NCBI GenBank assembly: GCA_041653995.1
Contig: JBAZEK010000001.1
Span: forward strand, 1,030,613 to 1,094,612
Direction of reading: 5' to 3'
DNA: 64,000 nucleotides
Source of the DNA: Dehalococcoidia bacterium
GTDB lineage: Bacteria; Chloroflexota; Dehalococcoidia; GIF9; UBA5629
Shown here piece by piece: positions 36,921 through 60,068 of this stretch. The notes below the pieces were generated by a model, which made no database searches, was not told the origin of the DNA, and saw only the letters and a program-made list of their open reading frames with translations. How positions within the stretch are numbered: the first letter of the stretch is position 1; the number at the start of each line of letters is the position of its first letter. Position numbers and translations under genes: made by a program.

Positions 36921-37451
36921 ATGCAACAACAGTATCAATGCCCTAATTGTAGGTATCCAGTTGCTTATGGGAATAATTTCTGTGGACATTGTAGACAACA
37001 ACTAATCTGGCAACAATTAATGCCACCTTCACCACCAGTACACCATCAGCAAACACCACAAGGCATTATTGGGAAATCACACGAGCAAAACACTTCTGGA
37101 CAAGGTGGTCAATCAATAATACCCGATGAAAAGCGTATTAAACTTCCAAAACTCAATATTCGTTTCGACTTTGAGTTGTTTCAAGCAATTGAGGACAATG
37201 ACCGTAAACTGGCTGAACAGCTCAAAGCAAAATATGGGGATGATGTTTATAATTCCAATTTTTATAACCTGCTTAGTATCGAAGACGCTAACTCAGTAGA
37301 CTCACTTCATCTTAAACTAGTATCAGTTGAAAAAATGAATTTCAATGATATTTTATGCGAAAGTATCAAAATAGAGACTGAAAAAGTACGCAAAAGGATA
37401 GAGGAGCTTGAGAATATAAAAAATTTACGCAACGGGATTGAGGAAGTGTAA
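36921..37451 (+). CDS. zinc-ribbon protein (MQQxYxCPxC family N-terminus)
   Basis: MQQQYQCPNCRYPVAYGNNFCGHCRQQLIW matches the N-termini of chromosomal genes at 56282 and 58107. The rest is charged and coiled-coil-like. Confidence 0.55.
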   Translation: MQQQYQCPNCRYPVAYGNNFCGHCRQQLIWQQLMPPSPPVHHQQTPQGIIGKSHEQNTSGQGGQSIIPDEKRIKLPKLNIRFDFELFQAIEDNDRKLAEQLKAKYGDDVYNSNFYNLLSIEDANSVDSLHLKLVSVEKMNFNDILCESIKIETEKVRKRIEELENIKNLRNGIEEV

Positions 37452-37511
37452 GGAACTGACTAAACCCCTGAAACTGGCAGCTCGAGTAAGAAAAATGGCG
37501 GGAAAGAAAAT

Positions 37512-39368
37512 TTGATTTATATGTTATGGGATGATACGTATCGTAAAGATGCAGCGGAGTATGAAATCTATCTGCGTATGCATCATAAAGAAAAAAACGA
37601 TTACGAGAAGCTTTTATCTAATCTTGAACGTGAGTGGTCAGAAAAATCAGTTAAAGAAGAAAACTACATATCGCTTAAAAAGGAATACACAGCGAAACTA
37701 CAGGAAACAAAGAAGTACATTTCAAAGCTGAAATTCCAGATTACAGCACTCATTAAAAAATGTAATAAAGACATAGATAAAATCGATAGCCAAATTGAAC
37801 AAATTAAATTGCGGCACAAAGTTGGTGAATATTCAGAGGAGAAACTCAAAGAACTATTATCACCATCTGAAACAGAAAGAAGGCAATTTGAATCCTTAAT
37901 AATCGAACTGAAACGCATACATGGCTTGAAATATATACCTAAACCAACTACCGATGATGTTGTATCAGAAACAGAACCGAGTCAGCCTAGAAGGTCTCCT
38001 ATCCCAACGTCATCTACTTCTATTTCAACAGCTGAAGAGCAAGCCCCCGAAATATCAGCACCAATGAGTTTTGAAGAACCGCCTCCTATTTTGGTACCTG
38101 CTGTATTTAAAAAGTCTTCACCTGTAAGAGTAAAGAAGAGTCTGTGGATTATGGCTTCGATTACTATGTTTGTAATATTAATTCTCTGTTTTGTTATTTG
38201 GAATATAGAAGTGCATAAAAAGGTAATCCCTCAGATTGGAGACCAAGCTCCAAACTTCTCTCTCCCAGATATGAATGGTAAAACGGTTAACCTTCAGGAC
38301 TTTCACGGAAAGGGTGTTGTTCTTTACCTTTGGGACACATCATGTCCTTACTGCAAAAATGACCTTAGCTGGATAAATGAATTAAATGGCTGCACCTATG
38401 ACGAAGCAATAATATTTTTAACTATTAATATCTCAGATTCACGTGGAACAGCTATTAAATATTTTGAGGAAAATGGATATAGTATTCCCGTTTTAAATGA
38501 TATGCGTGGGACGGTTATTAAGCAGTATGTAAAGTACACCTTAGGCCATACGTATCCAGATACTATTCTTATTGGTTCAAATGGCCAGATTCGTAATGTA
38601 AAAGTCGGGCCCTTCCAAAGCAAGACTGAATTAAAAACATTTATAGAATCAGGTTTAACCCCCCGTTGGGATAATACTCCTCCACAAATTTATGATATTA
38701 ATCTTTCTAAGGCCTCTATTTTGAGTTGGAAAACGGATGAGGAAACACATAGTAATATACAAGGGTTTCGTAATAGTGTCGGAGGTGCTGGAGTCACTCT
38801 TGGTGAAAATTGGACAAGATATCATAGCGTAAATGAAACAGTTTGCACTAATGGCTACTATGACCAAATTCAAATCAACTCGTATGACCGCTGCGGTAAT
38901 TCTGCTTCAAAAGTTTTTACACTGCCCAACTGCATAAATTTAGGTTGTAGAGCTCCTGATTTCACAGCAACTTCAACTAATAATCAGGATATAACGCTGT
39001 CCGCAGTACCTAGCAAAATGACTCTACTTCACTTCTGGCTACTCGGATGTGGTGCATGTGAAAAGGAACTTCCATTAATCCAAAAACTATATTATGAGCG
39101 TCCTAGAGAAGAACTTGAGATATTGGCTGTGAATGTTAGAGGTGACATATACAGCATAAATGACTTCGTTACTGCAAATGGTTATAGATTAATTATTTTA
39201 CTAGATACAGAAGGCATAATAGATGCCGCCTATCATAATCCAAGGTTCCCCACAACCTTTTTATTGGATTGCAATAAGGTAATTATTAACAAGCATGACG
39301 GTGCCTTTCAAAATTATGAAGAAATCGTTGATTTTGTAGGTCAGTATCCAAAACTTCCTGGTAAATAG
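37512..39368 (+). CDS. membrane-anchored protein with N-terminal coiled coil and two TlpA-like thioredoxin-fold domains (CPYC and CGAC)
   Basis: TTG start. Single TM (LWIMASITMFVILILCFVIW). Domain 1 is IPQIGDQAPNFSL...VVLYLWDTSCPYCKND. Domain 2 is GCRAPDF...LLHFWLLGCGACEKE. Confidence 0.7.
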   Translation: MIYMLWDDTYRKDAAEYEIYLRMHHKEKNDYEKLLSNLEREWSEKSVKEENYISLKKEYTAKLQETKKYISKLKFQITALIKKCNKDIDKIDSQIEQIKLRHKVGEYSEEKLKELLSPSETERRQFESLIIELKRIHGLKYIPKPTTDDVVSETEPSQPRRSPIPTSSTSISTAEEQAPEISAPMSFEEPPPILVPAVFKKSSPVRVKKSLWIMASITMFVILILCFVIWNIEVHKKVIPQIGDQAPNFSLPDMNGKTVNLQDFHGKGVVLYLWDTSCPYCKNDLSWINELNGCTYDEAIIFLTINISDSRGTAIKYFEENGYSIPVLNDMRGTVIKQYVKYTLGHTYPDTILIGSNGQIRNVKVGPFQSKTELKTFIESGLTPRWDNTPPQIYDINLSKASILSWKTDEETHSNIQGFRNSVGGAGVTLGENWTRYHSVNETVCTNGYYDQIQINSYDRCGNSASKVFTLPNCINLGCRAPDFTATSTNNQDITLSAVPSKMTLLHFWLLGCGACEKELPLIQKLYYERPREELEILAVNVRGDIYSINDFVTANGYRLIILLDTEGIIDAAYHNPRFPTTFLLDCNKVIINKHDGAFQNYEEIVDFVGQYPKLPGK

Positions 39369-39441
39369 ATAATTTCTTGATATTAAGAAATCGAGGTGTA
39401 CTGGTCTGAACCCCTGAAACTGGACAGCTTGAGTAAGAAAA

Positions 39442-39951
39442 ATGGCGGAAAAAGAAATGCAACAGGAGGAGCATCCCCTAAATATGGGGAAGCTACTTGT
39501 GAATTTCCAATCACTTGAGATAGCTCTCCGTCTATTTCTTTATAATGATGAAATTGCCTCTAGAGTTTCATCTCCTCAGGCGGTAAACCTAAATGCTATG
39601 AATGCGGGGGATATAGTAGCTGAAAATGCGTTCACAAACTATGATAGTCTAAGTCAACTCATTGATAAATATAATAACCATCCCAACATCATATCGACAG
39701 GTCTAACCATTGATAAGACTTTAGTGGACATACGTGATGCAATAGCTCATGGAAGAGTCGCTGGAGTCACTCCTTTGCTTGTGCCTCCTTTAAAACTAAT
39801 GAAGTTTGATAAACCAAAGAACAAAAGTGTGAAAGTAACATTTAGCGTTTTATTGACAAGGGAATGGTTCATTCTAGAGATGGCTAAGGTTCAAGATGCA
39901 GTTTTTAAAGTCTTTCAAGCTATCCAAATAATACAGAGTGCTAAGACATAA
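39442..39951 (+). CDS. hypothetical protein with possible HEPN-like Rx4H motif
   Basis: 169 aa. RDAIAHGR fits Rx4-6H. The evidence is weak. Confidence 0.35.
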   Translation: MAEKEMQQEEHPLNMGKLLVNFQSLEIALRLFLYNDEIASRVSSPQAVNLNAMNAGDIVAENAFTNYDSLSQLIDKYNNHPNIISTGLTIDKTLVDIRDAIAHGRVAGVTPLLVPPLKLMKFDKPKNKSVKVTFSVLLTREWFILEMAKVQDAVFKVFQAIQIIQSAKT

Positions 39952-40412
39952 GTGGTGCCCTCTGAAATCGCTCTGAGGGGCTGAAATCAGGGTGTTGCAT
40001 ATTGAACATGACGGATTCCACCTGTCATTACTATTCCAGCTTAATTAGAGCCTTTAAAGTATTAAACAGTAAAGGTAATAACTCTACTTCCTTTCCCTTA
40101 AGCCCCTTTATTATTTCTTCGCCTAAGTTTCCGTTCAAGTGAATTATGTCGCTTTTAAGACCAACAAACGCTGGTACACCATAAACACGTTTACGTTCAA
40201 GCCAATTATGTCGTTTTGCATATATTATTTCCAGCTTAAATTAACTACAGAAAAATGGGGCAAAAAGAGAAAAAGGGGAATTATATATCAATTTATTGTC
40301 AATAATCTTTGAAATACTATTACTTCATCTGAGAGAGATGCCAGCAGCTAAGTGTAACGGCATTGAATTTTAAATAACTTCTCAGCCCAAAGTGGTAACG
40401 CATATAGGTCTA

Positions 40413-40441
40413 TTGCATAAGTATTGTTCATATAATAGAAT
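40413..40441 (+). promoter_or_regulatory. sigma70-like promoter TTGCAT-17-TAGAAT (copy 2 of duplicated promoter-leader)
   Basis: 83 bp spanning promoter -10, RBS and the first 17 codons is identical to 34526-34608. Confidence 0.5.
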
Positions 40442-40467
40442 ACGGTCAATGTAGTGAGGCTGGGGAG

Positions 40468-41880
40468 ATGAAATATTTACTTGCTTGTTTCATAGCACTA
40501 TTCGTTATATCAGCCTGCACACCAAATAACTCAATAAACAACGTTGAGACATTCCCAAAAATCGGAGATAAGATACCGAATATCTCATGGACTACTATCA
40601 ATGGCGAAAAGATTGATTTAAATCAGTTTAAAGGCAGTTGGGTGCTACTATGCTATTGGTGCTCTTGCCCTGTACATAGGAATGACATACTGACTATTCA
40701 TAATGTTTATGATTCATTATATGATAAGAATCTCGATGTCATTGTAATTAATGATACTTATGCTCAGATAGAATTAGAGGCATTTGGAAAACAAAACAAT
40801 GTACCGTTTTATTTAATTGAAGATAATCAAAAAACAATTGATAAACTTGTACCATTTGGCAACAGGCCAATATATCTCTTAATTGATGGGAGTGGGGATT
40901 TACATGCTATCGAAATAGGTACATTTCGCTCTGGCGAAAATAGCGTTAACAATGTAATCAATTTCCTTGATGATGTGATTAAGGTAAGAATCGATAATAT
41001 TACAGTCACTAATATTACTTCAAATAGGGCAACTGTGAGATGGAAAACAGATAAGGCAGTACCGTGTTGGTTGGAAATTCACCCCCAAGGTGACCCAATC
41101 GGAAAGTGCATCGGCAAGACAAATCCAAATACATTTCATGAATTGATATTAAACTGTAATCCCAACACAGCTTACACTTTTAACGTAGCTGCTAGTGGAT
41201 TAGATAATTCTTTAATTAACGATGCAAGCAATCGTAGTAGTGAATTTTCATTTCAAACATTACCAAATTGGGTTACTTCTTTATATGAGGTTGACTCTAC
41301 TAAACCAAAAATATCGAATGTTAAAGTTTCTATAATTACAGATACGAGTGCAGAGTTATATTGGGAAACTGATGTGGAAGCTCAAGTCACCGCTACAATC
41401 TGTAAATATATATCCAGTACTGATGCGCCCTTAAACTCCCAGAAAATTGATTTTATAGAAGACATATATTTTACAAAGAAACATAGCTTTACAATTAGCT
41501 CTCTTGAGCCAAGACGATTATATGACGTTGGTTTAAATGCCAAAGATAGAATGGGAAGGGTTGCCGATTACAGTGTCGAATTTTTAACACAACCTTCAAA
41601 TTATACTCACGGAGCGAAGATATCCAATATATCTTTATATGACATCACGGACAGGAGTGCTAAATTAAAATGGTCAACTGACAAGTCAGTATGGAGTTCA
41701 GCCTGCTATAAATATGAGTGCTCTTCTGGGGACATCAACACTGAGCATTCATATACACTATCCTATGGTCTGGAACCCGATACAGAATACTGGGTGCAAA
41801 TTCTAGCACATGGGGAATCGGTATCTGATGTATTCAACTTCAGAACATTAAAGACAACAGATAAGGTAGATATGAAATGA
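40468..41880 (+). CDS. lipoprotein: TlpA-like thioredoxin-fold domain with variant CYWCSC motif plus three FN3/PAP-N-like domains
   Basis: Identical signal peptide MKYLLACFIALFVISAC. IGDKIPNISW...WVLLCYWCSCPVHRND. Three ~95-aa domains of type ITVTNITSNRATVRWKTD / VKVSIITDTSAELYWETD / ISNISLYDITDRSAKLKWSTD. Confidence 0.7.
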   Translation: MKYLLACFIALFVISACTPNNSINNVETFPKIGDKIPNISWTTINGEKIDLNQFKGSWVLLCYWCSCPVHRNDILTIHNVYDSLYDKNLDVIVINDTYAQIELEAFGKQNNVPFYLIEDNQKTIDKLVPFGNRPIYLLIDGSGDLHAIEIGTFRSGENSVNNVINFLDDVIKVRIDNITVTNITSNRATVRWKTDKAVPCWLEIHPQGDPIGKCIGKTNPNTFHELILNCNPNTAYTFNVAASGLDNSLINDASNRSSEFSFQTLPNWVTSLYEVDSTKPKISNVKVSIITDTSAELYWETDVEAQVTATICKYISSTDAPLNSQKIDFIEDIYFTKKHSFTISSLEPRRLYDVGLNAKDRMGRVADYSVEFLTQPSNYTHGAKISNISLYDITDRSAKLKWSTDKSVWSSACYKYECSSGDINTEHSYTLSYGLEPDTEYWVQILAHGESVSDVFNFRTLKTTDKVDMK

Positions 41881-41907
41881 AAGAAAATCAAAAGGGAGGT
41901 AAAGAAG

Positions 41908-42084
41908 ATGGTAGCAAATAAGAAGAAGTATTATGCAGGGGAATCAGCTAAAGTCTCTGGCAAATACAACGAATGCAGATTGGGCACAGGCAAAACAGGA
42001 GTAACAGCAAATGTCAAGAAGGGGGATACACTCCCACCACATAAAATAGGAGCTCATTGGGAGTTATCAAGAAAATCTAAATAA
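41908..42084 (+). CDS. small ORF (58 aa) with strong RBS, not in supplied track
   Basis: AAAGGGAGGTAAAGAAG precedes the ATG at 41908. It encodes MVANKKKYYAGESAKVSGKYNECRLGTGKTGVTANVKKGDTLPPHKIGAHWELSRKSK. Confidence 0.3.
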   Translation: MVANKKKYYAGESAKVSGKYNECRLGTGKTGVTANVKKGDTLPPHKIGAHWELSRKSK

Positions 42085-42316
42085 TATAGACATATTTAAG
42101 AAAGTGGTGACTTATAAAACTTCATGCTGTCCTGAAAGCTGAATGACCGAGTATATCTTTGCACCATAATAAAGTTCAGCCAAGGCACCGTTAAAATGTA
42201 CTACAGAATTGTTCTAAAGGGCCAAAATGGGGTATATAATATAGGGCATGACAGATTCTTCCTGCCTGAGCTTTTCAAGCTTAATTATTGAACAAATAAC
42301 TATGAAATCCTGATTG

Positions 42317-43081
42317 CTAACGAGGTAACTGATTTGAGCCGTTCACATCTTTGTAGACTTGAAGAGCATCCTCAAAGGATAAAGATTTTGAATACCTTTC
42401 AACCATAGAAATGCTTTCCCAACCGCCTAGATTTTGCACAATACGAGTGGATAACCCAGACTTAATATTGTGAATACAAAACCCTCTTCTATAGCTATGG
42501 GCGTTGGACTTAATGCCAGTTTCTTTAGACAATCGTTTAAGCATAGTTTTAATGCCAGCTCTTGATATTTCAAAACTATCATGCTCATCAAACCACTTTC
42601 CGATAACACCATTACCAGCTAAAGCCTTACGATACTTGTTACCCTTGCCCAGAATGGTTACTGTACCTTCACCCCAGTCAAAGTCTTTAGCGTGCACATT
42701 AGCACATTCACTCAGCCTTACTCCTGAGTACCATAAGAAACTAATTAATGCTCTATCACGTTCACAATGACAATGATTTATCAGAACTTCTAATTGTTCT
42801 TTTGATACCGCAGGCAATAGCTTCTTTTGAATTTTTGGGCTAGGAACTTTGTCAATAACCTTGTCGTGAATATAGCTATTGCTGTATAGCCATGAAATGA
42901 GAGTTTTGAGAGCTTGATAGAATCTTGCTTTGCCATTATGACAGGTAAGTGATTTTAGATAAGCATTAACTCCATCTGGACTTAGGGGATAACCAATAAA
43001 ATGAGTTAAAGTATATTCGTAAAATTCAATAGTTCGCTTACTACAACCATCGGGGCGAGAAGAAATAAACTTCTCCAACAA
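42317..43081 (-). CDS. int: tyrosine recombinase / integrase (short XerC/D-like)
   Basis: 254 aa with catalytic R (WYSGVRLSE), K (LGKGNKYRK), HSYRRG (HxxR), R and the terminal VERY tyrosine. Its start is 63 nt from tRNA-Val. Confidence 0.85.
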   Translation of the reverse strand: MLEKFISSRPDGCSKRTIEFYEYTLTHFIGYPLSPDGVNAYLKSLTCHNGKARFYQALKTLISWLYSNSYIHDKVIDKVPSPKIQKKLLPAVSKEQLEVLINHCHCERDRALISFLWYSGVRLSECANVHAKDFDWGEGTVTILGKGNKYRKALAGNGVIGKWFDEHDSFEISRAGIKTMLKRLSKETGIKSNAHSYRRGFCIHNIKSGLSTRIVQNLGGWESISMVERYSKSLSFEDALQVYKDVNGSNQLPR

Positions 43082-43143
43082 TTCTTTTGTGAACTTTTTG
43101 TAGCTAACTTGTGAATATTGTGAAATTGAGCTGTAGTTTTCTT

Positions 43144-43219
43144 TGGTGGGCGATACTGGATTTGAACCAGTGACCCCCTGTGTGTAAGACAGGTGCTCTA
43201 ACCGCTGAGCTAATCGCCC
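43144..43219 (-). tRNA. tRNA-Val (anticodon TAC); integration target
   Basis: 76-nt cloverleaf. Anticodon loop CTTACAC. CCA is encoded. It is highly similar to canonical tRNA-Val. Confidence 0.9.
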
Positions 43220-43226
43220 TGGGGAG

Positions 43227-43302
43227 TGGCACGCCTGGTGGGGCTTGAACCCACGGCCTCAGCCTCCGCAGGGCTGCGCTCTATCCACTGAGCTACAGGC
43301 GC
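43227..43302 (-). tRNA. tRNA-Arg-like with anticodon GCG as read
   Basis: 76-nt cloverleaf. Its overall sequence resembles tRNA-Arg(CCG), but the anticodon loop reads CTGCGGA. CCA is encoded. Confidence 0.7.
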
Positions 43303-43308
43303 ATAAAA

Positions 43309-43396
43309 TGGTGCCGAAGGTGGGAGTTGAACCCACACATCCGTTACGGATACTACGCCCTGAACGTAGCGCGTCTGCCATTCCGCCACTTCGGCC
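43309..43396 (-). tRNA. tRNA-Leu (anticodon CAG), long variable arm
   Basis: 88 nt. Anticodon loop TTCAGGG. A long extra arm and an encoded CCA are present. Confidence 0.85.
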
Positions 43397-43397
43397 C

Positions 43398-43470
43398 TGG
43401 GCAGCACAGGATTTGAACCTGTGACCCCTTGCGTGTGAAGCAAGTGCTCTAACCGCTGAGCTAGCCGCCC
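43398..43470 (-). tRNA. tRNA-Val (anticodon CAC)
   Basis: 73 nt without encoded CCA. Anticodon loop TTCACAC. Acceptor and T arms resemble the Val(TAC) gene. Confidence 0.85.
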
Positions 43471-43605
43471 TCTAACGCTATATTTTATTCTTTAACAAGG
43501 TTTAAAAGCAAGGCGAACCGCCCCGTACAATCATAGTTCATCAGGATTTATAAGCCCGCGCTGTGGACATCCCTCTACTCCAATGCATATAATTCAACTA
43601 CACCC

Positions 43606-44448
43606 ATGTTATCTTTTAAGCCGCTTGAAGCCGGCCCATCATCGCTGCTGAGTGTCCTCATCCTGCTTGCCGTGCTGGCTGTGGCCTGTGCATCACCCCT
43701 GCCGTCGCAACCGACGCCGGGCGACGATAATTCTCAACCCACGGCTGAGCCGGCGCAGATACCGGCTGCTCCTCCACCGGAACCGGCTGAATCCGAGAAC
43801 GTCTCCACAACAGTTGCCACTCCGGGATCGCCCGTCCGGATAAAGCTTATCCACTACAGGGGCACGCTCAGCAGGATCGGTTGCTGCAATCCGGGACTTT
43901 ACGAGAGAGATGAATTCGTTGTCATCCAGAATGTCGGAGATACGTATGTCGATATCGTCGACTGGCGTCTGACCAATATTACCAGGGGCTATCCCACTTT
44001 CATATTCCCGTCGCACTTCCCCTGCGTCCCCTACGAGCTGCCGCCGCCGGACCCGACCGAGGAAATAATATCGACCGAAAGCTATTACTCCTTGACCAAG
44101 AACCCGGCGCAGTCCGAGATCTACAGGTTCACGACAAATCCCCAGCAGTCCAAACCGACCAATGTGCCCAACAGTGAAATAGACTGGGCTTCATGCACGC
44201 CGGTGGAACCGCTGGACGAGACGCCCATGCAGCCGATAGCGGGCGAACAGGGAGTGCCGCCGCAGTGCATCCTCTACCCCGGTCAAACGATACTGGTATT
44301 CACAGATGAAATTCACTGCCAGACCGGAGGCTTCTCCTTCAACTGGGGACTGGGCAATATCTGGAACAACGTGACCGCCGATACGGCCGCGCTGTATAAC
44401 GCCCGCGGCGAAGAGGTATCGCGCAGGAGCTACCTTGTCGGCAGATAG
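43606..44448 (+). CDS. secreted lamin-tail-domain (LTD) protein
   Basis: Signal peptide, a P-rich linker, then DEFVVIQNVGDTYVDIVDWRLTN, which is typical of an LTD beta-sandwich. Confidence 0.6.
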   Translation: MLSFKPLEAGPSSLLSVLILLAVLAVACASPLPSQPTPGDDNSQPTAEPAQIPAAPPPEPAESENVSTTVATPGSPVRIKLIHYRGTLSRIGCCNPGLYERDEFVVIQNVGDTYVDIVDWRLTNITRGYPTFIFPSHFPCVPYELPPPDPTEEIISTESYYSLTKNPAQSEIYRFTTNPQQSKPTNVPNSEIDWASCTPVEPLDETPMQPIAGEQGVPPQCILYPGQTILVFTDEIHCQTGGFSFNWGLGNIWNNVTADTAALYNARGEEVSRRSYLVGR

Positions 44449-44586
44449 CGGCATGTTTTTCTCCCCGAATTATTAAGTTTATTGATTTATTTAATACCTG
44501 TGTATATAATCAAGAAAATGGTTAAACATAGTCCGCCGGAAATACGTTTTCTCTATGGATAGTTATGGATGTGATGGAGAGATGAA

Positions 44587-45612
44587 ATGCAGCAATGGAT
44601 AAGATGCACCAGATGCGGCGCCAATAATGCTCCCGGACAGAAATTCTGTAACGCATGCGGTACACCCCTGCCGACCGTCTGCCCCAATTGCGGAACCCCG
44701 GCAGGTCCCGGCAGCACTTTCTGCGCCAGGTGCGGCATGACATTCAGCGGTATGCCCCAGCAGACCGGATATTACCCTCCGCAGCAGCCGGGATATCCTC
44801 AGCAACCTGGCTATCCGCAGCAACCGGCATATCCGCAACAGCCGGGCTATCCTCAGCAACCGGGCTATCCTCAGCAACCGGGCTATCCGCAACAGCCGGG
44901 ATACCCGCAACAGCCTGGATATCCGCAGCAGCCCCCCGGCTACCCGCCTCAACAGACCGGCTATTATCCTCCGCAGCAGCCGGGTTATCCTCCACAGCCG
45001 GGATATCCGCAGCAACCGCCCGGTTATCCGCCGCAGCCGGGATATCCGCAACAGCCCGGCTATCCCCAGCAACCGGGATATCCGCCGGGCTATCCTCCGC
45101 AGCAGCCGCCACGCGGAGCGTATCCGCCGGGCGCAAGGCCACCCCAGCAAGGCGGCGGCAAAGGCATGCTCATATTGCTGCTGGTTGTTCTGATTGCCGG
45201 CCTGGCAGGCTTCGGTTACTGGGCTTACAGCCAGGGCTACCTCAAGGGCATACTTAACTTCGGCAGCGATAACACCACCACCTCCACAGGGAAACAGAAG
45301 GACACTGTGCCGCCCACCATCAGCGGCGTAGAAGTTAGCGCCAAGGCCATAAACGAAGTCGGCATTATCTGGAAGACGGACAAGCCATCCAGTTCTCAGG
45401 TGGAATGGGGTCCCAAGGGATCGTTCGGCAACAAGACGACACTACAGGATGACCCCGTGAGCGGTACCAGCATCGGTGTCACCGATCACGGGGTTATCGT
45501 CAAGGGATTAACGGCAAATACTGAATACCAGTACCGTGTGTTATCACATACCGACGGCAACGTTGACGCCGTATCCGCCACCAATACTTTCACGACACCT
45601 TCGGCAGATTAA
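44587..45612 (+). CDS. double zinc-ribbon / PQQPGY-repeat / TM / FN3-like surface protein
   Basis: N-terminus [23 protein letters not shown]. About 25 PQQPGY hexapeptide repeats are encoded by an 18-bp DNA tandem. Then a TM helix and a C-terminal Ig/FN3-like domain. Confidence 0.6.
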
Positions 45613-45644
45613 CCCTCCTTTTCGCTGCGTTTACAGATTTTCTA

Positions 45645-46529
45645 ATGTATCAATCAACAGTACCCTGCCCTAAATGCGGCGCGCAGAACCTGCGGGGACA
45701 GTGGGTATGCGCGTACTGCGGAAATACGCTTGTCGTTTATTGTCCATCCTGCCATACCGGCAACGCCATCGACAGCCAGTATTGCCACGCCTGCCATGCA
45801 GTTCTCGCGTATACCGGCGTTCCGCCGGCTCAACCACAGTATCAACCCCAACCCCAGCAGCCTCAACCATATCCGCAGTACCCGCAATATCCTCCCGGGC
45901 AAACTGACCAGGGCCAGTACCCTCCGCAGTATCCACCCTACCCTCCACCCGGTTATCCACCACAGCAACCACCCTACCCGGACTACCAGGCCGGATACGG
46001 CCAGCCCGGCGATTATAAACCATACTCGGTTCACGGCGGCGAAGCCTACGCCGGAGGCGGGCTGGACGGCCTGATCGACAGGCTCAAAGAGTTCGTGCGC
46101 AATACCAATCCCATTCTCCTCTCTTCGCTGGTGGTGCTGGTAGTCGGTCTGACCATCTTCCTCATCCTGGCCTTCCAGTTCGGCTGGATCAAGACGGGTT
46201 CGGCGCCCAAAGTAGAAACAGTTAAAGATACCACAGCTCCTGTGATAACTTATTTAACTTATGAGCCCGGTGAAAATAGAAGCATTATAATAATTTGGGC
46301 AACCAATGAGCCAGCAAGTACGCGGGTCGAGTGGGGTATCGCACCTGTTTTCAACCAATTCACACTTATAGAAAACGATCCCCAAGTTGGCCAAGGTACA
46401 CTTTCACATAGGGTAACATTGACTAACCTGCTACCAAACACCAGCTATATTTACCGCGCAATATCATATGACAAAGCAGGGAACAAATGCATGAGTCCTA
46501 CTATGCCATTCCAAACTACGAACTACTAG
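45645..46529 (+). CDS. zinc-ribbon / P,Q,Y-rich / TM / FN3-like surface protein (paralog)
   Basis: CPKCGAQN..CAYCG..CPSCH..CHACH, a PQY-rich tract, a TM helix and a C-terminal FN3-like domain. Confidence 0.6.
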   Translation: MYQSTVPCPKCGAQNLRGQWVCAYCGNTLVVYCPSCHTGNAIDSQYCHACHAVLAYTGVPPAQPQYQPQPQQPQPYPQYPQYPPGQTDQGQYPPQYPPYPPPGYPPQQPPYPDYQAGYGQPGDYKPYSVHGGEAYAGGGLDGLIDRLKEFVRNTNPILLSSLVVLVVGLTIFLILAFQFGWIKTGSAPKVETVKDTTAPVITYLTYEPGENRSIIIIWATNEPASTRVEWGIAPVFNQFTLIENDPQVGQGTLSHRVTLTNLLPNTSYIYRAISYDKAGNKCMSPTMPFQTTNY

Positions 46530-46632: not shown

Positions 46633-46917
46633 ATGCAGCAAAACTTTCTCTGTCCCATCTGCTGGCAAGAAAATACGGCCGGCAGCACGGTGTGCAGCCA
46701 CTGCCACTCACAACTCGGCGTTCTGGGCGCCGTCAATTCCAATTGCCCCCATCCCGGCTGCCGATGGCCGCGCGTACCCTACGACCGCTTCTGCGGCAAC
46801 TGCGGAAGCCCTCTGCAACCCATCTGCCCTAACTGCGGCAACAACATCTCCAGGGACTCGAGATACTGCCCCAAATGCAGCTTTTTCTGCGGCGGGGGCC
46901 GGGAAGGATTAAAATAA
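46633..46917 (+). CDS. stand-alone double zinc-ribbon protein
   Basis: 94 aa with four CxxC pairs. Confidence 0.5.
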   Translation: MQQNFLCPICWQENTAGSTVCSHCHSQLGVLGAVNSNCPHPGCRWPRVPYDRFCGNCGSPLQPICPNCGNNISRDSRYCPKCSFFCGGGREGLK

Positions 46918-46942
46918 TCATATAGCACTGCTGGAGAAGTAT

Positions 46943-47263
46943 ATGGCTGATATCCTTGACGAAGCTCAATCGTTATTACAGTGCAAGACCTGCCCCTGGT
47001 ATAAGAACTGCGTCCTGCCTGTCCGCGTGACGGAGCTCGACCTGAAAAAGCAACTCGGCTCGAATATATCTTTCTCCACGCCTCCCGGCATGGAGGACCT
47101 GGGTCTCAACCAGTTGCTGGGGGGTCTGGCTTCAGCCGCCGAAAATTCGATGCTGGAAGGCTGCCCGGTTTTCATCGATAGACTGCGCTCCAATCCCAAT
47201 CTGGCCCTGCGCATTAAAAAGGTCATGCAGGAGTGGTCGGACGAAAGCGGCGACCAGCAATAG
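46943..47263 (+). CDS. hypothetical protein
   Basis: 106 aa ORF immediately upstream of xth. Confidence 0.35.
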   Translation: MADILDEAQSLLQCKTCPWYKNCVLPVRVTELDLKKQLGSNISFSTPPGMEDLGLNQLLGGLASAAENSMLEGCPVFIDRLRSNPNLALRIKKVMQEWSDESGDQQ

Positions 47264-47266
47264 CTG

Positions 47267-49443: not shown

Positions 49444-49455
49444 GGCCCGAGGCCG

Positions 49456-53187: not shown

Positions 53188-53479
53188 TCCTCCTCTCCAT
53201 CAGTCAGACTACTGGAACCTGTGAAGAATCCCGATGTGAGCCGGGTGCGGTCTATGTCGTTATCCGGCTCACAGGTTTTTTTTGCTTTCAGCCCTTCCGC
53301 CGCCTGCAATCGATCCCATTTCAGCAGTGTTTCGGATCAACCCTGTATTAACCCAGTACCTAAGTCATAGTACCATAGTAGTATTGCTAATTTGAATATA
53401 CTGAGGTTATATATATGACATATGTATATGAGGTCGGATGTGAGGGTCCCCTTCAAATCAAACTTATATACATGCAAGG

Positions 53480-55312
53480 GTGAGGGTGAAACCGAATAGA
53501 TATGAAAAAGATCGATCTTTAAGTGAGGCATGGGCCGGCATCGACCGCGAGAGCTGTGATCAGCTGTTCAAATCGATATTTTTGAATTCCCCCATAGGTA
53601 AATACGTTGGGCAGAACGGCAAGTTCGTGCTCTTTAATCCTGCCTTTGAAAAGATCACCGGTCATAAGAAAGACGATCTCAGGGACATGCGCCATTTGAG
53701 CCTGGTCGTCCCGGCCGACAGGGAGCTCGTCAGAAGGAATGCCGTGCGCATGCTTAAAGGTTTGCGCAAAACACCCTACCGGTTCAGGGTATGTACGCGC
53801 ACGGGCGAGGTGCGCTGGATAATCGAGACAGTCGTGCCCATCGTGTACCGGGGCCGGCGCGCCGTCCTGGGCAATTCCACGGACATCACCAGCCAGAAAA
53901 ACCTGGGGGAGTCGTTTAAGGCAAGCGAGGAAAAATACCGCGCGCTGGTGGAGAATATCAACGACGTTTTATTCACGCTGGACACCAGGAAGACTATAAC
54001 TTATATAAGTCCGGTCGTAGAGCGCGTCACCAGCTATAAAGTTAAGGAATTGCTGGGACAACCCTTTACCTCATATGTACATCCGGATGACCTGCCGGGC
54101 CTGCTGGGCAGCTACAAACGCCTGCTGTCGGGGATAGTGGAGCCATGGGAATTCCGCCTGAAGGACAGGGACGGTGAAACCAGATTCGTGCGTTCCTCCA
54201 GCCGCCCGATCTACCGGGAAAAACGCATCGTGGGGGTTTCCGGCCTGATAACCGATATAACCGAGCACAGGAAAGCTGAGGACGAGCTTGTGAGATCCAA
54301 GAACCTGTTGCAGAACGTGATAGACGCCACTCCCGACTGGATGTGCGTCAAAGATTTCGAGCATAAATACATATTAGTCAACAAGAGCTTTGCTCAGGCT
54401 CAGCACCTTTCACCCCGGGATATGATAGGCAGGCCGGATACCGACTTCTTCGCGGAAGAGCTATGCGTGGGTAATCCGGGAAAAGGCATCGCGGGATTTC
54501 ACCATGACGACATGCAGGCCTTTCAGGGCCTCCTCGTGCAGAATCCCGGGACCGTTGTAACCTGGGCCGATAGCTCACAACATATTTACGATATATACAA
54601 TATCCCGTTGAGGGACAACTCGGGAAATGTGTACGCCGCCCTCACGTACAGCCGCGACTCCACAGAGAGACAGAAGGCGGAGGAAGAGCGCGAGGCATCC
54701 ATCAACGCCCTACAGAGGACTTTGCGGGCCCTGGTGGATACCATGGTCAAGGTGGTGGAGATGCGAGACCCATATACCGCCGAACACCAGCACCGGGTGG
54801 CCGACCTGGCGGGCGCCATTGCCAGGGAAATGAAGATGGATGAGCTGCGGATCGAACACCTGGTGATGGCGGCCAAAATCCACGATATCGGCAAGATGTA
54901 TGTGCCGTCGGATATACTCAGCAAGCCCGGCAAACTGACCGACACCGAACTGGACCTGATCAAGACGCATACCCTCGGCAGCTATTCCATACTGCGGGAC
55001 ATCGAGTTCTCCCGTCCCATCGCCTTAATGGTCCTGCAGCACCATGAAAGGCTGGACGGTTCCGGTTACCCCCGGGGATCGACGGGCAAAGAGATGCTGA
55101 CGGAGTCCAAGATACTGGCTGTGGCCGATGTGGTGGAAGCCATGTCGTCGCACCGCCCCTACAGAGCGGCGCTGGGTATAGATAAAGCCCTGAATGAAAT
55201 ATCAAAGAATCAAGGCAGGCTGTACGATCCCGAAGTTGTCGACGTCTGCCTGATGCTGTTTAAAGAGAAAGGATTTAAATTCGAGGACAGGTTCGTCTAC
55301 AGGGACCTGTAG
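53480..55312 (+). CDS. PAS-PAS-PAS sensor with C-terminal HD-GYP domain
   Basis: Three PAS-like segments, then HQHRVADLAGAIAREM...HHERLDGSGYPRG. Confidence 0.8.
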   Translation: MRVKPNRYEKDRSLSEAWAGIDRESCDQLFKSIFLNSPIGKYVGQNGKFVLFNPAFEKITGHKKDDLRDMRHLSLVVPADRELVRRNAVRMLKGLRKTPYRFRVCTRTGEVRWIIETVVPIVYRGRRAVLGNSTDITSQKNLGESFKASEEKYRALVENINDVLFTLDTRKTITYISPVVERVTSYKVKELLGQPFTSYVHPDDLPGLLGSYKRLLSGIVEPWEFRLKDRDGETRFVRSSSRPIYREKRIVGVSGLITDITEHRKAEDELVRSKNLLQNVIDATPDWMCVKDFEHKYILVNKSFAQAQHLSPRDMIGRPDTDFFAEELCVGNPGKGIAGFHHDDMQAFQGLLVQNPGTVVTWADSSQHIYDIYNIPLRDNSGNVYAALTYSRDSTERQKAEEEREASINALQRTLRALVDTMVKVVEMRDPYTAEHQHRVADLAGAIAREMKMDELRIEHLVMAAKIHDIGKMYVPSDILSKPGKLTDTELDLIKTHTLGSYSILRDIEFSRPIALMVLQHHERLDGSGYPRGSTGKEMLTESKILAVADVVEAMSSHRPYRAALGIDKALNEISKNQGRLYDPEVVDVCLMLFKEKGFKFEDRFVYRDL

Positions 55313-55453
55313 CTACCGCCTGCCGATATCACCGCCATCTTTCTAAACCACTTTGCTTTCCTCTACGTTTTAATATTTGATCAATATTTGAGCTGTATAC
55401 TGTTTATGTAAACAGCTTAAGATGGTCAATTATAGTGCGCAGGACGTAGATAA

Positions 55454-55651
55454 ATGCTGAAGAATTTGTACTGCCCCAGGTGCATGGCGCGGGTTATGTG
55501 CGGTGAGAGATTCTGTGGGAATTGCGGTGCAAACCTTGTATGGGCGGTGCGGCCGGCACAGTCAGGTGTGCCTGTGACGCCCATCAGCAAGGATATCTCC
55601 AGATTACTGGCAGACTTCGAGAAGCATATTAAATACAGCCATTCCAACTGA
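55454..55651 (+). CDS. small zinc-ribbon protein
   Basis: CPRCMARVMCGERFCGNCG. Confidence 0.45.
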   Translation: MLKNLYCPRCMARVMCGERFCGNCGANLVWAVRPAQSGVPVTPISKDISRLLADFEKHIKYSHSN

Positions 55652-55751
55652 AGTAATACACCGCCCGTTTAAGTTTAAGAGTTGCATAATAAGGAAGCGC
55701 TGACCGGGTCGATGCGATCAGCGCTTCCCTGTTTTATAAGACGTCAGGCTG

Positions 55752-56180
55752 CTACGGCATGGGCGGCGGGGGTGGCATGGTGCCGGGGAAGGGGCCGGGG
55801 AACGGGCCGGGGAACGGAGCGGGCCGCGGCGCCGGGTATGAACGATACGGGTAGTTATACCAGGGTGTGCCGTAGGAGTAGGTCCGGTAATAGATAACGG
55901 TGGGTTGATAGGCCGGCTGCGCAGAAGTTACATACGTATTCTGCTGCCGCAGTTTGGCCTGGGCTTCAGCCAGCGATTGCTGGGTAGTATTCAGTTGCTG
56001 CTGGGTTGAAGACAACTGCTGCTGTGTAGAGTTCAGCGAGTTGTTGAGTGAGTTCACCTGGCCTTGCAGGGCCATGTACTGCTCGCTGCTTATACCAGTG
56101 GAAATGCAACCCGCAGACATCACCGTCATCAGCAATACGACTGATAGAACCGCGATAATTGCTGTCTTTTTCATTTTCAC
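55752..56180 (-). CDS. secreted Q-rich coiled-coil / proline-rich lipoprotein
   Basis: Signal/lipobox (SAGC), a QQQL coiled-coil segment and a C-terminal PFPGPFPGP tract. Confidence 0.5.
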   Translation of the reverse strand: MKMKKTAIIAVLSVVLLMTVMSAGCISTGISSEQYMALQGQVNSLNNSLNSTQQQLSSTQQQLNTTQQSLAEAQAKLRQQNTYVTSAQPAYQPTVIYYRTYSYGTPWYNYPYRSYPAPRPAPFPGPFPGPFPGTMPPPPPMP

Positions 56181-56281
56181 CTCCTTTTTCTTAGCATAAA
56201 GGAGGTGAACTCAGTATGCTTGACGGCAATCTGACAAGTTACTGATATCAGGCTAACAAATTATCGATCGAGGCTGAATTG

Positions 56282-57880
56282 TCACGGGGTTACGCTCACG
56301 GTGACCGTGGCGTTATCAGTCCCGTAGCTGTTGATGGCGGTCAAGGTAAAGCTGGTGGTTTCAGCCGGCGATACAGCCTGCGTGTATTTCGAGGCTGGAA
56401 CGCCGATGCCCTGGTCAATAATGTATAAAGTAGCGCCATTCACATTCCAGGAAAGGTTGGATGTCCCGCCCTGAGAAATGCCGGTAGGCGTGGCCGTGAA
56501 AGATCTTATTATCGGCGCAGTGCCGTCGGTTAAAACGCCTACCGCAACCGTGACTTCCTTCTTTACGGAGCCGAACGTGTTGACCGCGGTCAGCTCATAA
56601 GTGGTGGAAGCGGTCGGTATCACCTTCGTCCAGCCGGAAGACGGTACGCTGCCGACATTCGGGCTGATAGAGACTGTCCTGGCCGCATCGACCGTCCAAT
56701 TGAGTGTCACCTCCTCCCCCAGCATGATCGAATTGTTGCTTACGGAGAAGGTTTTAATCCGGGGCGGGTCTTTGGTCAGCGCCGGACCGGTGCTCAGGCT
56801 GGAAGCATCCACGCTGATAGTGACCGTCCTGGTTACCGAGCCGTAGTCGCTGTCGGCCCTCAATGTATATACTGCGGTCTCGGAGGGCGTTATTCTGACC
56901 GTACCCTTTAAGGCCACGCCGCCGATGCCCGGACTGATATTAATCGATTTCGCGCCGATGATATCCCATGCCAGCGTCGCTTCGTCGCCGGCTTTAATCG
57001 AGGACGGGCTGGCGCTGAAGATCGTGATGATGGGCGTCTTGGATGTGCTTACCTCCAGCGCGGCTGAAGCGGTTGTATTGCCGTTGATATTGGCCGCCGT
57101 CAGCACATAGCGGGTGGTCGCTCCCGGGGAAACGACTTTCGATCCGGTCGAAGATACGGTTCCCACCTCCGGCTGGATGGAAACCGATGTTGCGCCGGAG
57201 ACGTTCCAGGATAAAGTGGACGTCTGCCCCACATAGATACCGCCAGGGCTGGCAACAAAGCTGTTGACCGTCGGCGGCTTGCCGGTGACCTCAACGGTTA
57301 TCTCCCTGCTCACAGAGCCGCCGAAACGGCTATCGGCGGTCAGCTTATAGGTAGTGGTTTCATCCGGCGACATTTTCTTTGTTCCGCTGAAAGACACCGT
57401 CCCTATGCCGGGGCTGATGGAGACGGCGGTTGCCTCGCCGACATCCCACTGTAAAGTCACCTCCTGGCCGGATATAATCGTAGATGAACTGGCCTCGAAA
57501 GCTGTAATAACCGGCGGCGCAAACAGTTTTTCAATATCTCCCTTCAAAGCAACGCCCGTGACGATAAGCGCTGTAACAACAAGCAAGGCAGAGGCTATAG
57601 CAATAGTCTTTGTCCGGTTATCTTTTATCCGCTGCAGCAGTTTCGATACGACGCTATTATTCGGCGGTTGTTCCTGTCCCTGCGAATCCTGACCCGCCCA
57701 TTGATTACCTTCCTGCGACTGATACCATTGCTGCTGCTGATCATGCCGGGAATCGTATGACTGGGACTGGCCCTGCGTCTGGGATCCCTGCCAGTTGAGG
57801 ACGGTTTTGCAGTATGAGCACTGCGCCTGTCCGTAGACGACAGGTGTGTTGCAGTAGGGGCAGTAATACATTTGCTGCAT
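56282..57880 (-). CDS. MQQMYxCPxC zinc-ribbon / TM / tandem Ig-like-repeat surface protein
   Basis: N-terminus MQQMYYCPYCNTPVVYGQAQCSYCKTVLNW, a Q-rich linker, one TM helix, then about five ~90-aa repeats (e.g. ...SxxxTLxWxVxGAxxVSIxPxIGxV...). Confidence 0.65.
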   Translation of the reverse strand: MQQMYYCPYCNTPVVYGQAQCSYCKTVLNWQGSQTQGQSQSYDSRHDQQQQWYQSQEGNQWAGQDSQGQEQPPNNSVVSKLLQRIKDNRTKTIAIASALLVVTALIVTGVALKGDIEKLFAPPVITAFEASSSTIISGQEVTLQWDVGEATAVSISPGIGTVSFSGTKKMSPDETTTYKLTADSRFGGSVSREITVEVTGKPPTVNSFVASPGGIYVGQTSTLSWNVSGATSVSIQPEVGTVSSTGSKVVSPGATTRYVLTAANINGNTTASAALEVSTSKTPIITIFSASPSSIKAGDEATLAWDIIGAKSINISPGIGGVALKGTVRITPSETAVYTLRADSDYGSVTRTVTISVDASSLSTGPALTKDPPRIKTFSVSNNSIMLGEEVTLNWTVDAARTVSISPNVGSVPSSGWTKVIPTASTTYELTAVNTFGSVKKEVTVAVGVLTDGTAPIIRSFTATPTGISQGGTSNLSWNVNGATLYIIDQGIGVPASKYTQAVSPAETTSFTLTAINSYGTDNATVTVSVTP

Positions 57881-58106
57881 GATATATTTTTACTTCCGTC
57901 ACAGAGGTAAGTCAAGCTGTATAAATAGTCCGGTGTGCCGGGATTGTTCGATCTTCTCCCTGTGGTTGACGAAGCTTAGCATAATGCATAGTCCGGGCCG
58001 GGTCAACTCATTCTCAGATAAGGACGCCATTGCTTTCGTGCCCTTAATAAATCCTTTATAATTTGCACATAAACTATTACATATATGACAAAAGTGAAGA
58101 TTTGTT

Positions 58107-60068
58107 ATGCAGCAAATGTACTCTTGTCCAAACTGTAGAGCGCTTATTCAGTATGGACAGCCGTATTGCAGCAACTGCGGTATGACCTTTAATTGGCCTC
58201 CTCCACAACCGCCTCCTTACCCATACCCCAACCAGCAATATATGTACGGCAATCAGGGGGCTATGCCGCCCGGGAAAAGCTCGATGGGCGGTTTTGTCTG
58301 GTTTATTGTGATATTGCTGATCGTCGGCGGAGCGATCGGCGGCTTCTATTACGCTACGAACGGAGATGTCTTGAAATGGTTCACCCCACCCTCCGTAACA
58401 TCCTTCGACGCCAGTCCCAAGTCCATCACGTCGGGAGGGACGGCAACATTAAACTGGGCCGTCATGGGGGCTCAATCGGTCTCCATCAGCCCCGACATCG
58501 GGACCGTGTCATCCAGCGGTTCGCAGGCTGTGAATCCTGATAAAACGACCGAGTACACACTGACCGCCTCCAATTTATCCGGCTCCTCCCGCGCCTGGGC
58601 CACCGTTACAGTTACAGCTCCGAGCAAGCCGGCCATCAGCAGCTTCAGTTCCAATCCGGGCACTATCACCGCCGGGCAGTCGGCCACATTATCATGGAAT
58701 GTTACGGGGGCAACCTCGGTTTCCATCAGTCCCGCTGTCGGCAACGTATCATCGAGCGGCTCAAAGACAGTGACACCCACCGAGACAACCAGCTACACGA
58801 TCACCGCCGTCAACGACGCCGGCTCGTCTACAACAACAGCCAAAGTTACGGTGAATCCGTCCGGACCACCGACGATCGCCAGTTTTACAGCCAGCCCGGC
58901 CTCTATCACCTCAGGCGGGAGTTCGACGCTGTCCTGGACCGTCAGCGGCGCAACCTCTGTTACCATTAACCAGGGTGTGGGCACAGTATCGACTTCCGGA
59001 ACCAGGTCGGTATCGCCCTCCACCACAACCACCTACACCCTTACAGCCGGCAACAGCCTGGGCAGCTCCACCGCGACGGCCGCTGTCACGGTCACGGCGG
59101 CAGGCATACCCGTCATAACCATATTCACCGCCAGCCCGTCGCCGATTACCGCAGGGGACAATATGACACTGTCGTGGACCGTAACGGGGGCGACAACGAT
59201 CAATATCTTGCCAGGTGTCGGAACAGTATCGGCAACAGGAACGCGCACTCTGATCCCCGCTGCGACCACCACCTATACGCTAACCGCCACCAACACTAAC
59301 GGCCCGGCGACCGCGACAGCGACGGTGACGGTGGCTTCGGAAGGCCCACCGGTAATCAGCTCGTTTTACCCATCTCCCGTCACCGTTACCTCCGGATCGT
59401 CTTCGACACTGCACTGGACTGTTGCGGATGCGACGGAGGTATCCATTACCCCCGGCATCGGCGTCGTATCTGCCACCGGATTAGAGACGGTAACGCCTTT
59501 ATCCACAACCACCTATGTATTAACCGCCTTTAACAGCCACGGCACAATCACGGCGACGACCGCTGTCACAGTGGCCCCGGCAGGCTATCCCGCGATCAGC
59601 TTCTTCAATGCCGTCCCGGCCTCGGTCGCGTCGGGACAATCGACAACGTTATCATGGACCGTCACTGGGGCGAGCACGGTCTCCATCAACCAGGGCATAG
59701 GCGCCGTTTCGGCCTCGGGTTCCAGGACAATAACTCCCGCCGCCACCACCACATACACAATTACCGCAACCAACGGCTCCGGCTCTGTTGCTGCTTCAGC
59801 TACGGTAACCGTAACGACAACCTCAGGTACGCCTCCGGTAATAGATTCTTTCGGAGCTTCGCCCACTACCATCTCGCCCGGAGGATCATCGCTGCTGAAC
59901 TGGTCCATAACGGGAGCAACTTCCATCTCAATCGAACCCGATATAGGCGAGCCATCATCGTGGGGCTATCAGGACGTATATCCCACGGAGACCACGACTT
60001 ATACCCTGACCGCCTTCAACAGCGCGGGTTCGGATACAGCCACAGTGACCGTGACGGTAACTCCCTGA
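58107..60068 (+). CDS. MQQMYxCPxC zinc-ribbon / TM / tandem Ig-like-repeat surface protein (seven ~90-aa repeats)
   Basis: N-terminus MQQMYSCPNCRALIQYGQPYCSNCGMTFNW, a P-rich linker, one TM helix, then seven repeats of the pattern SFxAxPxxITxGxSxTLSWxVxGAxxVxIxxGVGxVSxSGxxxVxPxxTTxYTLTA. Confidence 0.65.
   Translation: MQQMYSCPNCRALIQYGQPYCSNCGMTFNWPPPQPPPYPYPNQQYMYGNQGAMPPGKSSMGGFVWFIVILLIVGGAIGGFYYATNGDVLKWFTPPSVTSFDASPKSITSGGTATLNWAVMGAQSVSISPDIGTVSSSGSQAVNPDKTTEYTLTASNLSGSSRAWATVTVTAPSKPAISSFSSNPGTITAGQSATLSWNVTGATSVSISPAVGNVSSSGSKTVTPTETTSYTITAVNDAGSSTTTAKVTVNPSGPPTIASFTASPASITSGGSSTLSWTVSGATSVTINQGVGTVSTSGTRSVSPSTTTTYTLTAGNSLGSSTATAAVTVTAAGIPVITIFTASPSPITAGDNMTLSWTVTGATTINILPGVGTVSATGTRTLIPAATTTYTLTATNTNGPATATATVTVASEGPPVISSFYPSPVTVTSGSSSTLHWTVADATEVSITPGIGVVSATGLETVTPLSTTTYVLTAFNSHGTITATTAVTVAPAGYPAISFFNAVPASVASGQSTTLSWTVTGASTVSINQGIGAVSASGSRTITPAATTTYTITATNGSGSVAASATVTVTTTSGTPPVIDSFGASPTTISPGGSSLLNWSITGATSISIEPDIGEPSSWGYQDVYPTETTTYTLTAFNSAGSDTATVTVTVTP

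Follow-up and report, generated by a model that had tools for sequence, protein, structure and literature searches.

A zinc-ribbon head common to an integrative element and its Dehalococcoidia host: a probable lineage-specific module shuffled across the class

We analysed a stretch of 64,000 nucleotides from a Dehalococcoidia bacterium (Chloroflexota; GenBank assembly GCA_041653995.1, contig JBAZEK010000001.1, positions 1,030,613 to 1,094,612 of the forward strand), called the window below. In the window the same peptide start, MQQxYxCPxC, opens one gene of an AT-rich integrative element (the island) and two chromosomal genes for surface proteins. The explanation that we consider best as a whole, and rather likely, is that this start belongs to a lineage-specific zinc-ribbon head that is shuffled among genes throughout the class. 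The head, about 30 residues with four cysteines, would lie in the cytoplasm at the extreme N-terminus of most members. A disordered linker rich in Q and P would tie it to a single transmembrane (TM) helix with the N-terminus inside and the C-terminus outside (a type II anchor), and the helix would display a variable, interchangeable ectodomain. Within the Dehalococcoidia, the head would be shuffled among very many genes, including those of mobile elements. The host and the island would both draw on the Dehalococcoidia gene pool, and the module would therefore be common to both; the island protein would be a TM-less member from this class-wide pool and not a copy or mimic of the Ig-repeat proteins of the host. 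The open reading frames (ORFs) are named by their first coordinate in the window, and those with zinc ribbons are listed here.

36921..37451, plus strand: island protein of 176 aa with an MQQ zinc ribbon (residues 1-30), a Q/P-rich linker (about 31-70), a helical C-terminal region and no TM helix
36921..37010, plus strand: coding sequence of the island zinc-ribbon module (MQQQYQCPNCRYPVAYGNNFCGHCRQQLIW), an exact pattern match
56282..57880, minus strand: protein of 532 aa with an MQQ zinc ribbon, a Q-rich linker, a TM helix (93-111) and 5 tandem Ig-like repeats
58107..60068, plus strand: protein of 653 aa with an MQQ zinc ribbon, a P-rich linker, a TM helix (62-80) and 7 tandem Ig-like repeats
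55454..55651, plus strand: soluble protein of 65 aa with a single zinc ribbon, MLKNLYCPRC...GERFCGNCGANLVW, a member of the chromosomal surface-protein cluster
44587..45612, plus strand: protein of 341 aa with a double zinc ribbon, a long PQ-repeat linker, a TM helix (193-211) and an FN3/Pur_ac_phosph_N ectodomain
45645..46529, plus strand: protein of 294 aa, a paralogue of 44587, with a double zinc ribbon, a PQ linker, a TM helix (157-175) and an FN3-like ectodomain
46633..46917, plus strand: soluble protein of 94 aa with three zinc ribbons, the first of which opens MQQNFLCPIC

CxxC...CxxC pairs of the zinc-ribbon type stand at the N-terminus of these seven window ORFs; two further matches to the pattern both lie in ORFs of doubtful coding status. 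The longer signature MQQxYxCPxC-x6-G-x3-CxxC-x5-W forms the start of 36921-37451 (+), 56282-57880 (-) and 58107-60068 (+). Aligned over 32 residues, these three modules have 12 invariant positions and a protein identity of 44-50%, and all three carry QQxY, [FY]G and a W six residues after the last Cys. C7, C10, C21 and C24 are invariant in all members, in line with the zinc-ribbon pattern of two CxxC knuckles about 10-17 residues apart. W30 is missing from 44587, 45645 and 46633, and 55454 retains xxLY, CG and W. When the signature was written as a degenerate DNA pattern, it matched exactly three sites in the window. We dismissed a chance similarity of the three modules, because the pattern was not found once in 100 dinucleotide-preserving shuffles and the flanks of the ribbon are kept across the 90 module copies described below.

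The two groups also differ in their Pfam scores. The gathering score of DZR or Zn_Ribbon_1 is reached by 44587 (DZR 1e-11, Zn_Ribbon_1 2.4e-12), 45645 (DZR 7.4e-7) and 46633 (DZR 2.3e-14), and 36921, 55454, 56282 and 58107 stay below the gathering scores of the generic ribbon models. The ribbon scores are 16-20 bits for the island protein 36921 and 21.7 bits for 58107, against gathering scores of 25-27. Three relatives, P0002, L020 and L059, are above the Pfam ribbon threshold. Against the profile of the module itself, 55454 scored 29 bits and 46633 scored 21.5 bits. A relative of 55454, L021, retains the MQQ start (MQQKYFCPNC, MQQKYFCPNCGARIVCGERFC), and 55454 is a diverged member of the MQQ subfamily. 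Thus, the window holds four MQQ-type members (36921 on the island; 55454, 56282 and 58107 on the chromosome) and three looser relatives with double or triple ribbons. An earlier note on this DNA, made from the sequence alone, had described 44587, 45645, 46633 and 55454 as double ribbons. This description was borne out in so far as the first three reach the DZR threshold; 46633 has three ribbons and 55454 only one.

To delimit the family, we built a profile of the three window modules and compared it with 1.84 billion representative proteins: 1057 of them matched at E<=1e-3, and 30 reached E<=1e-10. Conservation was determined on 90 clean module copies taken from the best 150 profile matches, on which the motif was not imposed. 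In these copies Q2 is kept in 90%, Q3 in 93%, Y5 in 92%, P8 in 94%, [FY]16 in 94%, G17 in 95%, F20 in 72% and W30 in 100%, and the consensus reads MQQ[MW]Y[SQ]CPNCGAPVA[FY]GxRFCGNCGTQLNWP. Most copies (68) start at residue 1; the other 22 are internal, in proteins with tandem ribbons, and they retain QQxY and W. This indicates that these residues are part of the domain itself and not of an N-terminal signal. Among the same profile matches, generic multi-ribbon proteins align at positions 6-28 only; thus, the core is generic and the flanks are specific to the subfamily. Some proteins carry two or three whole modules in tandem, QQxY and LNW flanks included, separated by Q/P-rich spacers (P0003, P0005, P0010, P0012 and L036 2140-2667). 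The earlier note had asked for an alignment of the N-termini, and it turned out that their similarity exceeds the generic CxxC...CxxC pattern, since the QQxY, [FY]G and LNW flanks are kept in the unconstrained copies.

For the taxonomic distribution, the DNA pattern was scanned against one genome for each of 185,579 species (GTDB). The exact MQQ signature was found at 60 loci in 66 ORFs, all of them in Chloroflexota/Dehalococcoidia metagenome-assembled genomes (MAGs). A word-indexed profile search with a 44-residue alignment yielded one generic archaeal ribbon only, and nothing was found on the MQQ module in the literature on zinc ribbons in Dehalococcoidia or Chloroflexi. We consider that the MQQ element is, in all likelihood, a lineage-specific subfamily within the common prokaryotic zinc ribbons represented by Zn_ribbon_3, Zn_Ribbon_1 and DZR. 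These Pfam families (PF13248, PF13240 and PF12773) have the same core, CPxC-x10-FCxxCG, in about 23-26 residues and often at the N-terminus ahead of a TM helix; of 56 family members, 34 matched Zn_ribbon_3, the strongest at E=8e-9. The MQQ subfamily extends this core by a conserved QQxY strand ahead of knuckle 1, by LNW(P) behind knuckle 2 and by the Q/P-rich linker.

A TM helix is present in 56 of the 66 family ORFs, usually 50-130 residues from the N-terminus, and about 15% are TM-less. The 15 residues before the helix contain on average 2.8 lysines and arginines, against 0.8 after it. The number is higher on the ribbon side in 43 of 51 members and lower in one (Wilcoxon p=5e-8). This bias of positive charge toward the ribbon side places the ribbon, by prediction, in the cytoplasm, with the TM helix oriented N-in/C-out. 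In agreement with the description of 56282 and 58107 in the earlier note as a zinc ribbon followed by a TM helix and tandem Ig-like repeats, we found in both a ribbon, a linker, one TM helix and 5 or 7 repeats, and the predicted topology has the ribbon inside. The linkers consist of Q and P to 38%. Behind them, the C-terminal domains vary: Ig I-set in 19 of 56 members, TM2 in 4, tRNA_anti-like in 2, as well as InlB B-repeat, DUF4190, SAP and Phage_Mu_F. The head thus appears, from these sequences, to be a promiscuous, shuffled module. In one MAG (L003 1997-2599), the MQQ ribbon and a Phage_Mu_F (head morphogenesis) domain form a direct, TM-less fusion.

Modelling with AF2 (AlphaFold2) on a 65-sequence alignment gave a predicted local distance difference test score (pLDDT) of 74-82 for residues 1-30 and of 46-55 for the linker. 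In the PDB, Foldseek ranked NZF and RanBP2 fingers and the RadD zinc ribbon highest, with 25-27 residues aligned at 0.7-1.2 A and E-values of 0.1-0.3 that are not significant. A sequence search of the PDB gave generic zinc ribbons only (best 9sfa_A, E=8e-5). According to the model, the module is a Cys4 two-knuckle beta-ribbon mini-domain of about 30 residues, and zinc binding is predicted. Its structural neighbours bind proteins or RNA, and the head may likewise be a small cytoplasmic interaction or anchoring module; as a fast-folding domain, it may also help to fix the N-in orientation.

The likeness to known domains has its limits. The NZF/RanBP2 fingers (Trabid NZF1, HOIL-1L NZF, the Nup153 ZnF) and the RadD ribbon are compact, as the MQQ head is, and carry an aromatic side chain two residues ahead of the first Cys. 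However, the sequence identity is 17-28%, common descent is unsupported, and the NZF/RanBP2 types are eukaryotic and not membrane-tethered. The anti-sigma factors of the ZAS/zf-HC2 type resemble the MQQ proteins in layout, a cytoplasmic zinc-binding head with one TM helix and a variable extracytoplasmic domain; in contrast to their helical HxxxCxxC domain, the MQQ head is a predicted Cys4 beta ribbon, with neither a match to their Pfam models nor a nearby sigma gene. Short Cys4 N-terminal prefixes on otherwise unrelated proteins are also known from the NCBIfam '4-Cys prefix domain' (NF045510) and from the zinc-ribbon prefix of PRK14559-type phosphatases. These models gave weak matches, far below the cut-offs, for 44587, 45645 and 46633, and none for the MQQ members.

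The gene 36921 lies on an element with the following features.

31095..43146: integrative element of 12 kb carrying 36921, recognised by an attachment (att) repeat, a tRNA-Val, an integrase and deviant GC
43144..43219, minus strand: tRNA-Val(TAC), the integration target (ARAGORN)
42317-43081, minus strand: tyrosine integrase of the island, adjoining the tRNA
32529: Rep-like gene of the island (REP_ORF2-G2P, E=3.5e-6)
33166: stand-alone Cas4-like nuclease of the island
34508, 37512 and 40468: three ResA/TlpA-like thiol-disulfide oxidoreductases of the island

A direct repeat of 48 bp, a copy of the 3' part of tRNA-Val(TAC), stands at 31095-31142 and again at 43147-43194, and the GC content is 36% in the island and 54% outside it. 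The island also encodes XRE and excisionase-like helix-turn-helix proteins; its genes were annotated through matches in Pfam, PHROGs, PADLOC and NCBIfam. The region 31095-43146 is a genuine tRNA-integrated integrative element, and the earlier assignment of 36921 to an island is thereby confirmed. No relatives of the Cas4-like nuclease or of the integrase were found in IMG/VR. In PADLOC, the Cas4 models were matched only by this Cas4-like nuclease, and neither 36921, its neighbours nor the prophage ribbon-TM protein described below had a match.

The start of 36921 is annotated differently in the public JGI gene call of the same protein (P0001), which begins at Met34 and omits the ribbon (36921-37019). 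We favour the long form with the ribbon as the probable product, because the ATG is preceded, at a distance of about 10 nt, by a GAGG Shine-Dalgarno sequence and because P0002, encoded on a contig of 922 bp, conserves residues 1-72 at 53% identity. A search with the full island protein matched only P0001, the same protein with its truncated start, and P0002 over residues 1-72, and a metagenome scan with the protein found six loci that match the ribbon and linker only. After the common ribbon and linker, P0002 continues with a hydrophobic stretch, probably membrane-embedded, and 36921 with its helical region. Such a switch is the pattern expected from domain shuffling. The island protein has the Q/P-rich linker and lacks the single N-in TM helix, and 10 of the 66 family members are likewise TM-less. 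We rejected the idea of a split gene, in which 36921 and 37512 together would supply ribbon, coil, TM helix and ectodomain: over its N-terminal 235 residues 37512 is without homologues, so that no fused form could be found. Contig look-ups by exact sequence for P0001 and for the 58107 protein found nothing on record.

We then compared the island module with those of the host by ranking 159 modules by their identity to it over 30 residues. Its closest counterparts come from other Dehalococcoidia and are of the consensus type (P0051 and L059 at 73%, P0002 at 67%). The host modules stand at rank 100 of 159 with 50% (56282) and at rank 132 with 47% (58107), both below the median of 53%. The coding DNA of the island module and of the host modules is 49-52% identical, and the GC content at third codon positions (GC3) is 0.29 in 36921, AT-rich like the rest of the island, vs 0.65-0.67 in the host genes. 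This DNA identity and the GC3 gap indicate that a recent exchange between island and host is excluded. The earlier note had called the island module near-identical to that of the host, which does not agree with these values; its view of a family common to chromosome and island holds, with three MQQ ORFs and conserved flanks.

The exact MQQ signature also occurs on two IMG/VR contigs, L062 and L063. On L062 (IMGVR_UViG_3300037067_020992), a viral contig of 40.7 kb, a gene for ribbon, TM helix and ectodomain (7979-8533, minus strand) lies between an integrase and a CI-like repressor (region 6951-9250); L063 has the same arrangement of repressor and ribbon gene. Genes for lysogenic conversion or superinfection exclusion typically occupy such a position. 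The ectodomain of the L062 ribbon protein had no match in Pfam or PADLOC. Two further candidates for element-borne MQQ copies, L011 and L048, were rejected, as the nearby integrase fragments are too weak. Thus, mobile elements of the Dehalococcoidia carry MQQ-headed proteins. This is compatible with ancestry in a shared gene pool, and it also keeps alive a weak version of the proposal of the earlier note that the island may mimic or plug into a host system.

That proposal, in its host-specific form, is unsupported: more than 1000 protein clusters begin with the module and have C-termini unrelated to one another, and the host copies are far down the ranking given above. A wider form would have all MQQ heads dock to one cytoplasmic partner, for which the soluble, TM-less island protein competes or which it hijacks to the benefit of the element. 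We consider it improbable. Conserved residues of the surface type (Q2, Q3, N23, N29) in proteins with unrelated C-termini speak for it, as do the missing TM helix of the island member, the ribbon-TM gene in the lysogeny region of the prophage and the small soluble member 55454 that the host keeps beside its membrane members. However, about 100 other family members are at least as similar to the island module as the host copies are, TM-less proteins make up about 15% of the chromosomal family as well, and the island protein is almost without homologues, so that no conserved element-borne lineage is visible; there is also no PADLOC match. A speculative extension, to which we likewise give little credence, is that the head is an address tag read by a Dehalococcoidia-specific cytoplasmic partner, for example a machinery that installs or organises envelope proteins. 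Mobile elements would exploit it, the island with 36921 as a soluble decoy and the prophages with the ribbon-TM protein of the lysogeny region, and would thereby either disturb the surface proteins of the host or install their own.

The head could also have no partner at all, and as a fast-folding Zn(Cys)4 domain only hold the N-terminus in the cytoplasm, which would force type II insertion of surface proteins that lack a signal. Folded N-terminal domains, zinc fingers among them, reportedly block the N-terminal translocation of signal-anchor proteins, as Denzer, Nabholz and Spiess are said to have described in EMBO J in 1995. The layout of 85% of the members, in which a linker and a single TM helix follow the ribbon and the positive-inside bias is strong, and the absence of a signal peptide from these proteins fit such a role. 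Yet the conservation is much tighter than folding alone needs, module copies occur internally in tandem, and several members have no TM helix (the island protein, the Phage_Mu_F fusion L003, the SAP fusion L044 and 55454), which makes this explanation unlikely. Still less can be said for transmembrane signalling of the anti-sigma type, in which the zinc-binding head would sequester a transcription factor and release it upon a signal from the ectodomain. Although cytoplasmic zinc-binding head, TM helix and variable ectodomain follow one another as in zinc-binding anti-sigma factors, the seven ribbon proteins gave no zf-HC2/ZAS match and their fold, a beta ribbon, is not the helical anti-sigma domain. 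A scan of 16 flanking genes showed no sigma-factor domain, nor did a reading of the translations of the other flanking ORFs; no conserved adjacent regulator gene is seen in the syntenic loci, and ectodomains such as the multi-Ig repeats look structural. We regard this as highly improbable.

Several observations weigh against the class-wide shuffled head that we prefer. The taxonomic restriction holds for the strict signature, MQQ included, and the protein library carries no taxonomy; looser relatives may occur outside the Dehalococcoidia. The role as an interaction module would follow by analogy with the structural neighbours, and their Foldseek E-values (0.1-1) fall short of significance for a domain this small. 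The C-terminal residues of 36921, about 100, have no relatives beyond one identical database entry, and AF2 gave a poor model of the whole protein from the single sequence (helices 84-113 and 126-175, pLDDT 48.6). That non-ligand residues are strongly conserved in otherwise unrelated proteins would agree as well with one specific partner common to them, as the earlier note had thought, and a common cytoplasmic partner of the heads is possible.

The chromosomal pair 56282/58107 lies in a cluster to which two further genes belong.

55752..56180, minus strand: protein of 142 aa with a TM helix, a coiled coil and a proline-rich tail, a neighbour of the zinc-ribbon/Ig pair
60380..61465, minus strand: secreted or lipoprotein-like protein of 361 aa with repeats related to the Ig repeats of 56282/58107

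The cluster 55454-61465 is syntenic in the Dehalococcoidia MAGs L006, L014, L039, L043 and L061 and could be an envelope or S-layer-type module. The genes 56282 and 58107 are divergent, with 226 nt between the start codons, and encode Ig-like repeats of about 80 aa each; the divergent pair is kept in L006, L039, L043, L053 and L061. Orthologues of 56282 in L014, L006 and L061 are 75-79% identical, and that of 58107 in L006 is 91% identical. At the syntenic position, 55454 has orthologues of 67-91% identity (L006, L043, L061, L039), and 55752 has orthologues of 88-93% identity (L014, L043, L061, L006, L039); the coiled-coil Pfam matches of 55752 are weak. By BLASTP, 60380 is related to both 56282 and 58107, and its L043 orthologue is 84% identical.

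The looser relatives 44587 and 45645 are adjacent paralogues of similar sequence, both with a match to Pur_ac_phosph_N (1.3e-9 and 4e-9, respectively). Their linker of PQ/PGY repeats is unusually long, about 130 residues in 44587, and their ectodomain, similar to FN3 and to the N-terminal domain of purple acid phosphatase, is of the same type as in the island lipoprotein 40468. An ORF of 106 aa with a CxxC...C motif, 46943, lies 26 nt downstream of 46633 (region 46633-47263) and has no match in Pfam or NCBIfam.

The cargo of the island is unusual in itself, as the extracytoplasmic ResA/TlpA-like oxidoreductases are fused to a beta-propeller, a second redoxin domain or FN3 repeats. The island contains an internal duplication, 34459-34608 vs 40367-40517, of 80-92% identity, which comprises the upstream region and the lipoprotein signal peptide (MKYLLACFIALFVISAC) common to 34508 and 40468. 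This duplicated 5' region suggests that the true start of 34508 is an internal Met. The 5' region of 39442 is also duplicated upstream of 37512 (37460-37511 vs 39406-39458). In the copy upstream of 37512, an ATG at 37495 is followed by a stop after 6 codons (ATGGCGGGAAAGAAAATTTGA) and looks like a frameshifted start. The island boundary is formed by a tight group of four tRNA genes, Val-Arg-Leu-Val (43144-43470), and beyond it lies a gene for a secreted protein with a lamin-tail domain (43606-44448; LTD, E=2.4e-12).

A shuffled domain distributed over the whole class would explain why the same peptide start is found in genes of an AT-rich island and in GC-rich genes of its host. Sharing the head would then mark the element as native to the mobile gene pool of the Dehalococcoidia and would not be evidence of mimicry. 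The analysis delimits a large, uncharacterised and taxonomically sharp subfamily of zinc ribbons that tags many proteins of the surface and the membrane in a poorly cultured class. The MQQ head may serve as a usable marker for type II membrane proteins in the Dehalococcoidia and offers a defined target of 30 residues for the finding of its ligand.

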